From NCBI GenBank assembly GCA_963765895.1, contig CAVXZB010000078.1, positions 21,447 to 85,446 on the forward strand: DNA of 64,000 bases, read 5' to 3'. The stretch comes from an uncultured Nitrososphaeraceae archaeon (GTDB taxonomy: Archaea; Thermoproteota; Nitrososphaeria; Nitrososphaerales; Nitrososphaeraceae). Shown piece after piece: positions 25,860-36,122 of the stretch; position 1 is the stretch's first letter; every line of letters begins with the position of its first letter. The notes below the pieces were generated by a model. That model ran no database searches, was not told the origin of the DNA, and worked only from the letters and a program-made list of their open reading frames with translations. A program made the translations under genes and the position numbers.

Positions 25860-26118
25860 ATGGCAACAGAAGCCGCTCTTTACAGACATACAAATAGCAG
25901 AAGAATCAAATCCTCAGAAAATGGGTATTTCAACGTAAGTGAAAGTTTGTTAATACCAAATTTCCTGCTTTGTAAAGATTGTTTTTGGTCTGCCTCGGAG
26001 GTTTATCGGTACTAGAATTAGTATGAGTTCTGCGTGTCCAGCCTGTGGTCATGAAGGGGTGATATGTATGCCTATTTGTGGAATCGGCGTGATCAAGTTA
26101 GGCGATCGGAAAAATTGA
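25860..26118 (+). CDS. Small zinc-ribbon protein (LCxxCFWxAS...CPxC), frameshifted near 26005
   Basis: MATEAA...FLLCKDCFWSAS, then in another frame ACPACGHEGVICMPI...*. Confidence 0.6.
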
Positions 26119-26738
26119 CATAATTGATTCGCTAGCTAGCCTAGTTTAATAAGTTAGGAGCCGTGTGTGTTGGAATTCAATCTTTGATACAAAGTTGCCT
26201 TATAAGATAGACATTTCTTACTATCTATCTCGGATTGGGTCTTAATTGATACAAGTATTCAAAGCTAGGTCTTAATAATTATCTCAGACTTACCTACTTA
26301 ATTCCATGTTTAGCCTTACTATAATACCTAACCAGTTAGCTAGATATTGCCTCAGCGTCACAGTAGAGACTGATATAAAATTGGCGATTGTGCTAAAATA
26401 ATGCATAGTCGGCTGCCCTTAAATCTGTGAATCTCCTGAATGACTATCTAATACAAAATGCAACATTTAATCAGGTTGCACATAAGACACGAGGTAAAAT
26501 TCAGATTTAACATTGTCGTTACCCAGATAGGAATTTAGATTAACGAATATTCCTGTTATATCTAAACATGACTTCGATCCTCTGACTATCTGATGAGTGT
26601 TCCTTCTAAAGAATGAGTCGCGCAACTGAAAGAAAACCAGTATAAATGATCAAGTGATATCGCGCGTAATATTACTTTGTAACACATTGAAAACTTTGAG
26701 CTTAATTAAGATTGGCGTTAAAAGATAATAGAAAGTTC

Positions 26739-26876
26739 ATGTCATCAACAACACACAAGAACATTTTATGCCCATATTGTCAGTCAAAATTTAAAGACAA
26801 GACCGAATTATCCAAACACATAGACAGAATACATACAGGTTTAGGGTTACTAGAAGGAGATAGACGTCAGTGTTAA
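26739..26876 (+). CDS. C2H2 zinc-finger microprotein, 45 aa (not in ORF track)
   Basis: MSSTTHKNILCPYCQSKFKDKTELSKHIDRIHTGLGLLEGDRRQC*: C-x2-C-x3-F-x5-L-x2-H-x4-H. Confidence 0.8.
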   Translation: MSSTTHKNILCPYCQSKFKDKTELSKHIDRIHTGLGLLEGDRRQC

Positions 26877-27478
26877 ATGTATCACAAGTACTATTCCACA
26901 GCTGATTAACAAAAAGATGTGATTCATTCCCCTTCTCCTAGATCTAATAATATTTTCAAATTGATTTTACTAAATCATGCATGTACTAATCAGTTAAGAC
27001 ATTTTATTGAAATTGAAGCGATACAATAAAAACTAAACTGCCTGCAATCCAAGTAAATATGTGCATCGCGTACACATCATTGGCGGACCAATTTGGCTAG
27101 CCATTTGAAGTTACTAGCTACAAAGTTATTAGATTTTATGTTCTGAAAGCTAGTATCAGCATACTTATATCTTATTGACTTGTACTTCATATTCCTGTTG
27201 AGTTTTGTCGAGTAATCCAAGCGCTCGATTACAACAAATACTAAATATATTAAATAAGATAATAATAGACAAGAAAATTTATTTTATAATAGACTTCAAA
27301 TCTGGAGTTCAGTTAGACTTCTTAATTACTGAATCAGCAAGGTAGACGAATAAATAACCATTGCGATATACATTGGACATAATCATGACAATATTGTTTC
27401 CGGTAACCCATTGTCATTGTCGTGACCATTCTTTTCTAAAAGTGGTCAATAATAATAAGTATTTCTATATATTATTAG

Positions 27479-28066
27479 ATGACAACGATAGTTGGGCTCA
27501 GAACCAAGTATGGCGTTATACTTGGTTCTGACAGAAGAGCAAGTAAAGGGTTCTTTATAGGATCCAAAATAACCCAAAAAATAACACGAATGGATGATAC
27601 ACTAGCTGTTGCTGTTGCAGGGCAGCTGTCAGACGCAGAACACATCATCAAAGTTGCTAAAGGTGAGCGAAAATTGATAGAACTACGTAGGGGATTTCCT
27701 CTAACAGTTAAGGAATCCTCAAGGTTGATTGCCAACTTGGCATATTCTGGTCTTAAGAACTACCAACCATACTTTGTAGAGTTGATAGTCGCAGGAGTTG
27801 ATAGTGAGGGCGGGCATGTCTATGTGGCCGACATGAGTGGCGCCATAACCAGTGAGGACTTCGCCGCGTCAGGCTCTGGAGCTCCAGTTGCTTATGGTGT
27901 GCTTGAAAATCTATATCAGAGTGAAATGACTAACGAGCAGGCAAAGCAGATTGCGGAAAAAGCGGTATCTGCTGCAATGGAGAGAGATCCTGGTTCAGGG
28001 AACGGAATCGATGCTTTGGTCATTCCAAATGTAATGCAGCTTCCGCAACAGGAGCATGTGAATTAG
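27479..28066 (+). CDS. psmB: 20S proteasome beta subunit paralogue without propeptide
   Basis: M-T1TIVG, D17, K33, AG, SGSG, RDPGSG; in-frame TAG immediately before the ATG. Confidence 0.93.
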   Translation: MTTIVGLRTKYGVILGSDRRASKGFFIGSKITQKITRMDDTLAVAVAGQLSDAEHIIKVAKGERKLIELRRGFPLTVKESSRLIANLAYSGLKNYQPYFVELIVAGVDSEGGHVYVADMSGAITSEDFAASGSGAPVAYGVLENLYQSEMTNEQAKQIAEKAVSAAMERDPGSGNGIDALVIPNVMQLPQQEHVN

Positions 28067-28068
28067 AA

Positions 28069-28755
28069 ATGTCAGAAATTGGTGGCTCAGCAGTTAGTAA
28101 CAATACCAGATATCCCTACTATTATGGTCCAGAAGGACGACTGGTATTAGTAGACAGCGCGTTAGAAGCTGTAAGCAGAGGGTCAACTACCATTGGTATA
28201 AAAACACGAGATTTTGCACTGATTTCGAGTCATATTAAACCAACTAAGGCGCTGGTCGAGCCTGCTGAAAAGATCTTTACCATAGATCAGCATATTGGTG
28301 CTACTGGTTCTGGATATATTGGCGATATACTACAATTAATAGATGAGATTAGGATAGCAGCCCAAAGGCATCGCCTTTCTTATGAAAGCCCGATAGATAT
28401 CAATTCCCTTGCAAAGTACCTTAGCTCCTACTTACATAACTATACAATCTACGCTGTAAGACCACAGGCCGCCTCTATAATAATTTCTGGATTGGATCAA
28501 ACAGGTATTCAGTTGTACCAAGTTGACCCTAGCGGGACTTATTTTCGTGGATCTGGCTTTGCTATAGGTCATTACTCTGATATTGCCTTAGATGTGCTCC
28601 AACGAGAGTACAATCCCGATTTGAGTATCGATGAAGCAATCGCACTTGGCAATAAAGCAATGGAAAGAGCATTGGACGAAGGACCGCTTGTAGAAACTGG
28701 CATAGTGACTGTTAAGGACGGGGTATTCAGGAAGCTTACTAACACCCAAAGCTAA
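28069..28755 (+). CDS. psmA: 20S proteasome alpha subunit paralogue with divergent gate
   Basis: PEGRL..V..A.EAV.RGST.IG, EKIF.ID.HI, SG..GD, VRP, DPSG, AIG; starts 2 bp after the beta stop. Confidence 0.92.
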   Translation: MSEIGGSAVSNNTRYPYYYGPEGRLVLVDSALEAVSRGSTTIGIKTRDFALISSHIKPTKALVEPAEKIFTIDQHIGATGSGYIGDILQLIDEIRIAAQRHRLSYESPIDINSLAKYLSSYLHNYTIYAVRPQAASIIISGLDQTGIQLYQVDPSGTYFRGSGFAIGHYSDIALDVLQREYNPDLSIDEAIALGNKAMERALDEGPLVETGIVTVKDGVFRKLTNTQS

Positions 28756-29240
28756 ATTAGGCAAGCACTGTCCAGTCATGCTGAAAAGAACGTTCATAGA
28801 GTAGCAATGCCCTACTGTTTTTTTCGTACCTTTAAAGTAGCTTCTACTATTTGCTCAGTGATATCTAATTCCGGAGCACTCCAAAAGAGACCAGCATAAC
28901 CTCGACGTTGATAAAATTTCCAGATTTGTGTTGCCCACACAAATTCGATCTAGCCTCATAACATGTTTTCTAGAAACTAAAATAGATCTATGTCGTATTG
29001 CTCGTTCAATTGTAATAGTAGACCTATTTGCTGGTTAAGGACGCCATTTACTTAATTAGTATAAAAAACTCCGATAGCAAAGTTAAGATAAAGACGTGAC
29101 TTCTTTTCTTAGGCTACACCTTCTAATGTACAGTTCGGCATGCCATTTAAGATAGCAGGTTCTTCAGAACAATATGTTTTCATGCTAGAAGACAAACGCT
29201 TACAATACTTAAAATACTCTCTAAAGCTATATATTTACAT

Positions 29241-29579
29241 ATGAATTTCGGACTCTATTCAAATAAGGCTAGAGAAATATCTTTTGAAAGTCATTTATCA
29301 TCTTTGGAGCAGGAACCCAAACAAATACTACTCGAAATCCGCGACTTCGTGAAATCACTCGGTAGCAATGTCATCGAAGAGATAAGGCCACACAGAATAG
29401 TCTACGCTAAGTCTTTAACCTTCAGGACTTTCTTGGATATCCAACCAAGAAACAACGCCTTGGTCATATCGATAAGAAATAGTAGAACCGAACCTGCTTC
29501 AGTTAACACTATTCAAAGCCCACTTCAGTCGGCTGATATTAAAACTCAAATTGCAGTTGCATATAATTCGATTAAGTGA
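29241..29579 (+). CDS. DUF5655-like (YjbR/DUF1801-type fold) protein
   Basis: EIRDFVKSLG.NV.EE.....I.Y.K...F..I.P...; ends AYN. Confidence 0.55.
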   Translation: MNFGLYSNKAREISFESHLSSLEQEPKQILLEIRDFVKSLGSNVIEEIRPHRIVYAKSLTFRTFLDIQPRNNALVISIRNSRTEPASVNTIQSPLQSADIKTQIAVAYNSIK

Positions 29580-35369: not shown

Positions 35370-36122
35370 ATGGACATTGTAACCGATGAACTGCCCGCGG
35401 GTTCCTTATTCGACCAAATCCGTGCGAGAGTAAGAAAAACATTGAAAAATGGGGTCCAACTTGACATGTCAACCCAAGAAAGCAGGAAACTGTTGAGAAG
35501 ACACGTGAACTCGAAAACAAACTTCGTCTTCCTATTTGTAGATATCAATAATTCAACCCAAATGAGTCTCTCAATGCAAGAAGACAGGTTTGCTCTGTTG
35601 ATTCAGGTATTCGCTCAAGAGATAAGCGTTGTCGTTTCTGGTTACGGCGGATATGTGTTTAAATACGTAGGAGATGCAGTTATAGTGTTATTTCCAGCAG
35701 GGCACGATCCAAGTAAGGCTTGCGTCAATGCAATGAGCTGTTCTAAGACTATACTTGATATTATTCGAAACATCATATCCCCAATTTTTGAAGAAATGAG
35801 TTTACCTGATATTAAGGTAAGAATCGGCATCGATTATGGGGAAGTTTTGGTAGTTGTATATGGAAAGGATGTTCAAAAAGCGCATATCGACATCTTGGGT
35901 TCCGCAATTAACATAGCATCAAAAATTGCTTCTATAACCCAAGCTAATCAAATATTAGTGGGCGAGTCAGTTTATAATATATTAGGCCAATCAAAGAATG
36001 AGAGAATTTATCTCAATAATGTGGTACCTCTACGTGAGATAACGCTTGATACTGCTAAATGGAATTACCCTTCTTATCTGAACGTCGGGAGCGTCTACAG
36101 GGTGTATGAATATACTTGTTAA
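35370..36122 (+). CDS. Class III adenylate/guanylate cyclase
   Basis: FVDINNST, KYVGD, RIGIDYG, DILGSAINIASK; the K/D pair suggests ATP specificity. Confidence 0.9.
   Translation: MDIVTDELPAGSLFDQIRARVRKTLKNGVQLDMSTQESRKLLRRHVNSKTNFVFLFVDINNSTQMSLSMQEDRFALLIQVFAQEISVVVSGYGGYVFKYVGDAVIVLFPAGHDPSKACVNAMSCSKTILDIIRNIISPIFEEMSLPDIKVRIGIDYGEVLVVVYGKDVQKAHIDILGSAINIASKIASITQANQILVGESVYNILGQSKNERIYLNNVVPLREITLDTAKWNYPSYLNVGSVYRVYEYTC

Follow-up and report, generated by a model that had tools for sequence, protein, structure and literature searches.

We describe here two adjacent proteasome genes, one of the beta and one of the alpha type, in a 64,000-nucleotide (nt) stretch of DNA, which we call the window, from an uncultured Nitrososphaeraceae archaeon (assembly GCA_963765895.1, contig CAVXZB010000078.1, positions 21,447 to 85,446). 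The host is a soil ammonia-oxidising archaeon that carries this extra, old and well-conserved gene pair in addition to its housekeeping proteasome genes. We propose that the pair encodes a separately regulated, self-contained second 20S-type particle, most likely built as alpha7-beta7-beta7-alpha7; judging from the genes and their relatives, we give this reading slightly better than even chances. The source genome measures 4.9 Mb in 88 contigs and is 88% complete. The elements at the centre of this study, for which we use the names alt-beta and alt-alpha, are the following (lengths in amino acids, aa; ORF, open reading frame):

27422..27449, plus strand: operator-like inverted repeat GTGAC-N18-GTCAA, 57 nt upstream of the beta ATG
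27479..28066, plus strand: alternative proteasome beta, 195 aa (ORF and PF00227)
28069..28755, plus strand: alternative proteasome alpha, 228 aa (ORF and PF00227)

The beta protein begins M-T-T-I-V-G, with an in-frame TAG (27476-27478) directly 5' of its ATG, and only 2 nt separate the beta stop codon from the alpha ATG. A first-pass annotation, made from the letters of the window, had pointed to a beta that starts M-T-T-I behind a stop codon and without Gly(-1), to Thr1, Asp17 and Lys33 at canonical spacing, and to an alpha starting 2 bp past the beta. Reading of the ORFs bore out each of these features (the beta ends at 28066 and the alpha starts at 28069), and Gly47, the GSG motif and RDxxSG are also there. 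The odd features of the pair are not due to chance, since they recur in every orthologue of the same lineage that was examined.

An additional proteasome gene pair

The source genome contains five PF00227 genes, namely one housekeeping alpha, two housekeeping betas and the window pair. The pair is thus an extra one, and the suspicion that canonical psmA and psmB genes lie elsewhere in the genome proved correct. The housekeeping alpha has the canonical N-terminus G-Y-D-R...S-P-D-G-R-L-Y-Q-V-E-Y. The second housekeeping beta (beta2; L003:1480-2076, plus strand) has Ala in place of Thr1, and across the phylum beta2 reads P-G-A-T-[AT]-V-G, with Ala at the catalytic Thr1 position. Its sequence fits the inactive structural beta type known from Sulfolobus, so that the housekeeping particle of this organism probably has fewer than 14 active sites.

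The same gene set is found in other carriers of the pair. Nine of them each have the pair, one housekeeping alpha and two housekeeping betas. The five outside-group carrier genomes have five PF00227 genes each, as do four of the five class carriers, the fifth (G174) having a sixth, weak match. Among five non-carriers, four have three PF00227 genes and one has four. In all ten genomes with a complete PF00227 listing the two genes of the pair were found together.

The gene for the housekeeping alpha of the source genome, on contig C19 (L002:1347-2064, minus strand), carries a 1-nt frameshift near codon 190. The tblastn matches pass from frame -1 to frame -2, and the ORF stops after 200 aa where relatives have 243-248. 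This is probably an indel of the assembly, because several frames of AAA ATPases are fragmented as well.

Both products of the pair are recognizable members of the proteasome family. Alt-beta matches PF00227 with 156.4 bits over residues 2-182, and alt-alpha matches it with 145.9 bits. The more specific models gave 194.6 bits for alt-beta against TIGR03634 (equivalog cut-off 224), and for alt-alpha 167.7 bits against TIGR03633 (cut-off 287.35) and 177.8 bits against NF003075 (cut-off 219). Because these scores are all under the NCBIfam equivalog cut-offs, we regard the two proteins as beta-type and alpha-type but not as housekeeping orthologues. The best solved relatives are archaeal 20S beta chains for alt-beta (1j2q_H, E 4.6e-37, residues 2-182 aligned) and archaeal 20S alpha chains for alt-alpha. 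Within its own genome, alt-beta is 35% identical to the first housekeeping beta (beta1) and 28% to beta2, and alt-alpha is 40% identical to the housekeeping alpha.

The active site of alt-beta is strictly conserved. The 71 unique full-length alt-betas all have, without exception, Met0, Thr1, Thr2, Asp17, Arg19, Lys33, Gly47, the GSG motif and the Arg-Asp pair of RDxxSG. All class loci with a complete beta 5' end start M-T-T-I (31/31; 30 with ATG, one with TTG), and the alt-betas of Caldarchaeum and of the Methanomethylicia also start Met-Thr-Thr, some of them from GTG or TTG codons. The sequence 5' of the start is unconserved in the class loci, often with a stop within a few codons. A propeptide ending in Gly(-1) is absent from alt-beta; the housekeeping beta1 of the same genome has a propeptide ending in ...K-K-G before T-T-T. 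The presence of Met-Thr-Thr in 71/71 orthologues and the unconserved upstream sequence exclude a propeptide hidden by an indel, an eventuality that the first-pass annotation had raised, and contigs from RNA libraries (see below) have no indel inside either gene. Between the window and Caldarchaeum, alt-beta is 64-67% identical and housekeeping beta1 44-45%. Judged by its residues, alt-beta looks catalytically competent and strongly constrained.

In the alpha subunit the pocket is kept and the gate is changed. An AlphaFold2 model of alt-alpha (mean confidence, pLDDT, 86.7; residues 1-14 below 50) has an H0 helix at residues 26-37 before the core, and Foldseek aligned it with the archaeal alpha chains 1j2p_A and 1pma_A at a TM-score (TM) of 0.86 (root-mean-square deviation 1.7 to 1j2p_A). 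The predicted monomer has the alpha-type fold. Gate positions were read from an alignment anchored on P-[ED]-G-R-L, with housekeeping alphas only as references; for Y8, D9, R10, P17, Y26 and K66 we use the Thermoplasma alpha numbering. The cluster formed by Tyr8, Asp9, Pro17 and Tyr26 stabilises an ordered open gate upon activator binding, and the HbYX tails of AAA unfoldases dock in the Lys66 pocket. The window alt-alpha has N-T-R at the Y-D-R positions, Pro17 kept, Ser at Tyr26 and the Lys of E-K-I kept, and it reads R-Y-P-Y-Y-Y-G-P-E-G-R where the housekeeping type reads Y-D-R...S-P-D-G-R. These readings, first made from the window, including the Y-P-Y-Y-Y stretch, agree with the comparison to the genome's own housekeeping alpha. 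Ahead of the conserved Arg, the tail varies between sequences and has many Gly, Ser and Ala residues. Three positions of the gate vary between the groups:

Tyr8: housekeeping alphas 17/17; ammonia-oxidiser alt-alphas 0/36; Caldarchaeales 0/11; Methanomethylicia, Tyr in 15/23
Asp9: housekeeping alphas 17/17; ammonia-oxidiser alt-alphas 0/36; Caldarchaeales 0/11; Methanomethylicia, Asp or Glu in 19/23
Tyr26: housekeeping alphas 17/17; ammonia-oxidiser alt-alphas 0/36 (Ser 34, Ala 2); Caldarchaeales 0/11 (Arg 11); Methanomethylicia 23/23

The pocket Lys equivalent to K66 is present in 70/70 alt-alphas and 17/17 housekeeping alphas. Gly19 and Arg20 are likewise found in 70/70 alt-alphas and Pro17 in 69/70, and Arg10 is kept almost everywhere. 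The loss of gate residues, as read from these alignments, is therefore lineage-specific: it affects the ammonia oxidisers and the Caldarchaeales, and the motif is largely kept in the Methanomethylicia. The rewired gate of the first-pass annotation stands for the lineage of the window, in which Tyr8, Asp9 and Tyr26 are lost, and falls as a trait of the whole family.

The catalytic subunits of HslV, Anbu and BPH are made as Met-Thr and need only removal of the Met, and a propeptide-less start of this kind is typical of them. It is therefore conceivable that alt-beta acts alone, as an HslV- or Anbu-like homo-oligomeric hydrolase of the N-terminal nucleophile (Ntn) type or with an activity other than proteolysis, for instance that of a ligase, alt-alpha being a regulator or scaffold. 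Enzymes of the proteasome fold with other chemistry do exist, Connectase being an example (PMC7980362). We nevertheless consider this improbable. Alt-beta scores 21 bits against the HslV model TIGR03692 (cut-off 157.75), over residues 2-58 only, as compared with 194.6 bits for the archaeal beta model, and 20S beta chains are its nearest relatives over the full length; membership of HslV was rejected on these scores. The adjacent alpha-type partner argues against membership of Anbu or BPH, alt-alpha itself keeps the H0 helix, the Lys pocket and its similarity to 20S alpha chains (TM 0.86), and all checked residues of the proteolytic site are invariant.

Distribution and ancestry of the pair

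Alt-alpha orthologues stand clearly apart from other alphas in searches of 401 Nitrososphaeria genomes. There were 87 matches in 86 genomes (E <= 4.5e-77, 51-100% identity), and beyond the gap the next match, at 7.7e-43 and at most 41% identity, was to housekeeping alpha, giving a bimodal distribution. Alt-alpha is carried by most members of several genera within the organism's own family, by two genera of the second large family and by parts of two smaller families; no alt-alpha orthologue was found in the remaining 315 class genomes, including 0/83 of the largest genus. In genome G293 (97% complete, 2% contamination) alt-alpha matches lie on two contigs, C262 and C110, at 70 and 71% identity to the window, which may reflect a duplicated operon or two strains in one bin.

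The pair also extends well beyond this class. Alt-beta orthologues were found in 16 of 121 sampled genomes of the phylum (E <= 2e-62, next match 8.8e-41), 14 of the 16 being outside the class. A scan of one genome per species, with a profile built from these outside betas, gave 41 named loci, whose carriers include Candidatus Caldarchaeum (89-98% identical to the query), Archaeon HR01, Nitrosomirales and other Nitrososphaerales, and, among the Methanomethylicia, Methanosuratincola, Methanomethylicus and relatives. The pair is not specific to the ammonia oxidisers of the Nitrososphaerota, being an ancient paralogue which Caldarchaeum and the Methanomethylicia share. The surveys cover the Thermoproteota, and since the patterns of the named-locus scan are specific it may miss other lineages. 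The tallies take in five unpublished genomes (G365, G283, G327, G132 and G231), and, related genomes not being independent, the counts describe conservation and are not to be read as statistics.

In a representative library of 1.84 billion proteins, the alpha query found 26 proteins at E <= 1e-30, and the full-length members of the alt-alpha family fell essentially into two clusters of 50% identity (P0121 and P0131). The few matches and the two clusters suggest that the alt-alpha family is narrow. One library protein of 495 aa (P0124) has two stretches that match the alpha query (37% identity, 230 bits) and may be a tandem alpha-alpha fusion. For alt-beta there are more than 1000 homologues of 191-215 aa, abundant in soil metagenomes, the best 120 of which are 77-99% identical.

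We inferred maximum-likelihood trees for both subunits. The alpha tree has 79 rows (48 loci, 25 library representatives and 6 betas as outgroup) and the beta tree 70. Sequences shorter than 170 aa were dropped, and an 85% identity filter kept 48 of 87 alphas and 64 of 119 betas. The 25 library rows were drawn from 71 filtered representatives (every third, plus P0121 and P0131, without P0126), and one row of the beta tree, with an over-extended 5' ORF start, was set for trimming to its last 215 residues. In the alpha tree, the operon alphas of the Methanomethylicia (100/100) and the alt-alphas of ammonia oxidisers and Caldarchaeales (100/99) unite at 99/91, in a clade that excludes the housekeeping alphas of these organisms; along its backbone the tree was not resolved. 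In the beta tree, the Ala1-type beta2 (96/99), alt-beta (100/97) and beta1 (98/96) each form a clade, their branching order not being resolved. The inner groupings of the alt-alpha and alt-beta trees match, and in every locus with enough flank the beta and alpha genes lie side by side, 0-8 nt apart or overlapping. The separate clades and the matching groupings mark the pair as an old paralogue that has been inherited as a unit with many losses, and not a recent duplicate. On the point of phylogeny and synteny raised in the first-pass annotation, the pair does not group with the housekeeping orthologues (99/91 and 100/97).

A separate and younger duplication of the alpha gene was seen in the second large family, most genomes of which give four alpha-type matches to the alpha query. 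The complete genome G004 of this family, which is without the alt pair, has two alpha genes (L072 and L068). In the L072 alpha, Y-D-M-T-P-T-M-Y-S-P-D-G-R-I replaces Y-D-R-A-I-T-I-F-S-P-D-G-R-L, and this protein sits within the housekeeping alpha clade (97/98), beside P0268.

The stretch that holds the pair occurs in sequencing runs from soil and rhizosphere, six of which are on record as metatranscriptomes. Four metatranscriptome libraries, from four studies, gave contigs (95-99% alike) that extend over both genes and across the beta-alpha junction, among them one of 1430 nt over 27386-28815 and one of 1226 nt over 27497-28722. Two further RNA-library contigs lie on 26904-27043. The intervals 27062-27385 and 29006-29248 have no cover in these four runs, which says nothing on transcript ends. 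Contigs end near 27497 in two runs and at 27386 in one, positions that are not readable as a transcript start, and one run has a loose, adapter-like end at 27497, which is an artefact of the library.

These data bear on the suggestion that the pair arose by a recent duplication confined to one lineage, is a copy in decay, or is an artefact of assembly in which the start of beta was cut off. The assembly does have apparent frameshifts elsewhere, in the housekeeping alpha and in frames of AAA ATPases. Against this stand the same start and gene order in 71 unique orthologues from three deep lineages, the large number of alt-beta homologues of similar length, the well-supported position of both clades outside the housekeeping clades, and the absence of indels inside the genes in the RNA-library contigs. 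We find this explanation hardly credible, and a recent duplication in particular was rejected because the trees place both genes outside the housekeeping clades.

A conserved operator and the putative regulator X

The inverted repeat upstream of the pair is the sole match to its pattern in the 64 kb of the window, where 0.07 would be expected from shuffled sequences. The AT-rich stretch that follows it may, by its sequence, be a TATA box. The element GTGAC-N18-GTC[AGT]A lies 5' of beta in 30/30 class ammonia-oxidiser loci, with a spacer of always 18 nt and at a distance of 55-74 nt from the start codon, and AT-rich sequence comes after it; the loci of Caldarchaeum and of the Methanomethylicia have close variants at the same position. 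We built a position matrix from the 30 class sites and searched the source genome with it. Only two sites exceeded 18 bits, the window site and one upstream of a gene for an HtrA-like protease:

C87, L182:2389-2424, plus strand: copy of the operator (position matrix)
C87, L182:2798-3478, plus strand: HtrA/DegP-like gene with Trypsin_2 and PDZ domains

The N-terminal part of the frame of this protease gene may be broken.

A further candidate emerged from the neighbourhood of the pair. Clustering of flanking genes identified a gene, denoted X, which all 41 named loci have directly upstream of alt-beta in the same orientation. X adjoins the pair in most class loci, being convergent downstream in one genus, and is present in 84 of the 86 alt-alpha genomes; the two without it are 87% and 89% complete. 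In the source genome X is unlinked (C88:119374-120195; L174:5372-6190, minus strand; 272 aa). No remnant of it was found upstream of beta in the window, and a six-frame profile search of the whole assembly found only the C88 copy. This copy has a further copy of the operator about 110 nt upstream, in the orientation of X. The description of the pair as a self-contained operon needs to be qualified: in most lineages a linked X and the conserved operator go with the pair.

The N-terminal part of X resembles a MarR-like winged helix, with the invariant segment F-x-G-x-x-R...H-Q...L-x-R-x-L-x-R-L, and its C-terminal beta-alpha domain has invariant W...R-W residues. Most Pfam matches to MarR and MarR_2 are under the cut-offs; one of five orthologues passes for MarR_2 (34.3 against 27), and the X of the source genome reaches 24.9 bits for MarR against a cut-off of 24.6. 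No NCBIfam model matched X over its cut-off. The structural model has a winged-helix fold, with Foldseek matches to MarR-family chains (E >= 2e-3, TMq about 0.3). For the C-terminal domain no solved or named relative was found, Foldseek giving winged-helix matches only and the Atlas only MarR-like archaeal clusters.

Put most simply, X would be a dimeric regulator acting on this operator, and the alternative proteasome, the HtrA-like protease and X itself would form a small regulon, a claim that is limited to these three sites. Since the same element precedes the HtrA-like gene and X, a small regulon for protein quality control is suggested. In G164, from a family without the pair, X lies directly before a gene for an HtrA-like Trypsin_2 and PDZ protease (L180:5578-7402, plus strand).

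The other genes of the window gave no further clue. The neighbours of the pair are a metallophosphoesterase, a Na/H exchanger, a small C2H2 ORF, a DUF5655-like ORF and an ABC ATPase; flank comparison showed no functional partner among them, and none is conserved next to the pair elsewhere. A scan of the window for promoters and terminators of the bacterial type was uninformative (10 sites, 8.6 expected). The roughly 1.5 kb 5' of beta (25900-27420) contain no ORF longer than 56 aa, apart from the following:

26712-26876: C2H2 zinc-finger ORF, 54 aa, Pfam matches below cut-offs

This stretch may mark a rearrangement, because relatives have gene X at that position. Further downstream, at 35370-36122 on the plus strand, lies a gene for 250 aa whose product matches the catalytic domain of adenylate/guanylate cyclases (PF00211, 60.7 bits), a finding uncommon in archaea.

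The proposed particle and its counterparts among known systems

We propose the following sequence of events. The pair would be transcribed as one unit from its own promoter, which carries the GTGAC-N18-GTCAA operator, and the operator would probably be bound by the winged-helix regulator X, encoded here on another contig, so that X would switch production of the particle. Methionine aminopeptidase removes Met ahead of Thr, and a gene for the type II enzyme is present in the source genome (282.8 bits, above cut-off). Alt-beta would be translated as Met-Thr-Thr and Thr1 exposed by this enzyme, such that autocatalytic cleavage of a propeptide would not be needed. Archaeal 20S particles assemble spontaneously, and the 14 beta subunits would be active once the Met is removed and the rings are closed. 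According to a review (PMC13022661), active archaeal particles can be recovered from E. coli.

Alt-alpha would form the outer ring, and its Lys pocket would still dock the HbYX tails of AAA unfoldases. With the Tyr8/Asp9/Tyr26 cluster lost in this lineage, entry would be controlled differently: the gate may be loose at all times, or the Tyr-rich segment and the flexible tail may set it. No PAN was found above the cut-off in the source genome (best 320 bits, against 500). At least six Cdc48-like AAA ATPase loci are present, on contigs C14, C52, C87, C23, C84 and C48, with C-termini reading ...V-P-Y-Y-R, ...K-S-F-Y-S (HbYX-like) and, twice, ...L-S-H-Y-R. Observed directly are the genes with their conservation and separate clades, the operator, the linked X gene, the MetAP gene and the contigs in RNA libraries; we infer that the two subunits co-assemble, that Met is removed, that the particle is active, what state its gate is in and that X binds the operator.

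The main alternative, rather unlikely in our view, is that the products are isoform subunits which enter the housekeeping particle and give mixed or alternative rings, in an exchange of the immunoproteasome type. Alt-beta could stand beside or replace beta1 and beta2 under housekeeping alpha rings, and alt-alpha could provide alternative outer rings. All five subunits have one fold in common, the phylum already has a housekeeping set of two betas, one with Ala at the Thr1 position, and the housekeeping alpha gene is frameshifted in the assembly. Archaeal particles with several paralogues are known from Sulfolobus (10.1101/774273), and the reference list of the review PMC13022661 cites two 20S forms of Haloferax. 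What speaks against such an exchange is that the two genes are always adjacent and tightly coupled, that they occur together in all ten fully listed genomes and that their trees mirror each other; a subunit that fits an existing partner would need no co-inherited partner of its own. The identity of 35-40% to the housekeeping set is, moreover, a strong divergence.

Several observations weigh against a separately regulated second particle, even though it is the reading that we prefer. The present data would fit private and mixed particles alike. The frameshift in the housekeeping alpha gene, if real, leaves alt-alpha as the sole intact alpha, which might then have to serve the housekeeping betas. 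The change in the gate is not family-wide, as the Tyr26 and Tyr8 counts of the Methanomethylicia attest. On the regulatory side, the oriented pair of pentamers occurs 9 times in the genome when about 6.5 would be expected by our own estimate of chance, and the bare palindrome TGAC-N18-GTCA is no more frequent in the genome than chance would have it (53 sites against 56 expected). That X binds the predicted operator is deduced from gene neighbourhood only. Of the 315 genomes that lack the pair, 23 have X (two of the matches being weak), and X is unlinked in the source genome, so that it is not a dedicated part of the particle. Finally, the RNA-library contigs show presence and an intact frame, and not a start, a strand or a single transcript; they may stem from carried-over DNA.

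A bolder version of the second particle can be put forward only tentatively, and we doubt it more than we believe it. The regulator X, beta and alpha would form an ancient, separately switched module, older than the split of Nitrososphaeria, Caldarchaeales and Methanomethylicia, with 14 ready-made sites and no assembly checkpoint. The gate of the ammonia oxidisers and of Caldarchaeum would be without the canonical ordered open state, and co-induction with the HtrA-like protease through one operator would make it part of a regulon for proteotoxic stress. Damaged proteins might be broken down by such a particle with no ATPase at all, or with the help of a Cdc48 paralogue dedicated to it.

The archaeal proteasome is the textbook simple model, in which a single alpha is combined with one or two betas and maturation by autocatalysis is the safety step. 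Here a complete second set of alpha and beta has long been kept in three lineages of the Thermoproteota, including Caldarchaeum, which has a eukaryote-like ubiquitin system. If our proposal is true, specialised and separately regulated core particles are not a eukaryotic invention. The pair is, in addition, a natural experiment for two questions of long standing, why the beta propeptide is needed and what role the YDR/Tyr26 gate cluster plays, since a single paralogue has gate-retaining members in the Methanomethylicia and gate-less members in the ammonia oxidisers and Caldarchaeales. The conserved operator and the linked regulator make this biology directly testable in cultured soil ammonia oxidisers.

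In full-text searches of a literature library we found no account of a complete second alpha and beta operon, of a natural propeptide-less archaeal 20S beta, or of the regulator or operator, although gene lists in supplements or subscription journals may mention the genes. Passages of PMC7980362, 10.1101/774273, PMC4453063, PMC3082918, PMC13022661, 10.1101/2025.02.13.638070 and PMC6043591 likewise describe neither the pair, nor such a beta, nor the regulator.

Compared with the canonical archaeal 20S proteasome, such as that encoded by psmA and psmB of Thermoplasma and Archaeoglobus, the pair has in common the Ntn fold, the two subunit types, the catalytic residues, the H0 helix and the Lys pocket. 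It differs in that alt-beta is without the propeptide and Gly(-1), that the alpha of this lineage is without Tyr8, Asp9 and Tyr26, and that the two genes are closely spaced in one operon, which has an operator to itself. The alternative pair is, furthermore, additional to the canonical set, scores under the equivalog cut-offs and forms separate clades.

HslV, Anbu and BPH have no partner of the alpha type, whereas alt-beta has an adjoining alpha gene. The multi-paralogue particles of Sulfolobus and of Haloferax (alpha1/alpha2) are alike in that one archaeon has more than one alpha or beta gene; according to 10.1101/774273, the Sulfolobus 20S particle consists of one alpha and two betas, one of them inactive. 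In those organisms, however, the paralogues are dispersed single genes whose products join one particle, while here a complete, co-inherited operon of alpha and beta with a linked regulator is found in three deep lineages. There is a likeness in concept to the vertebrate immunoproteasome and other conditional variants of the core particle, in which alternative core subunits are controlled separately beside a constitutive set (PMC13022661). This likeness implies no evolutionary relationship, and the two differ in kind: the immunoproteasome exchanges beta subunits only, within the same alpha rings, whereas here both types of ring have a paralogue.

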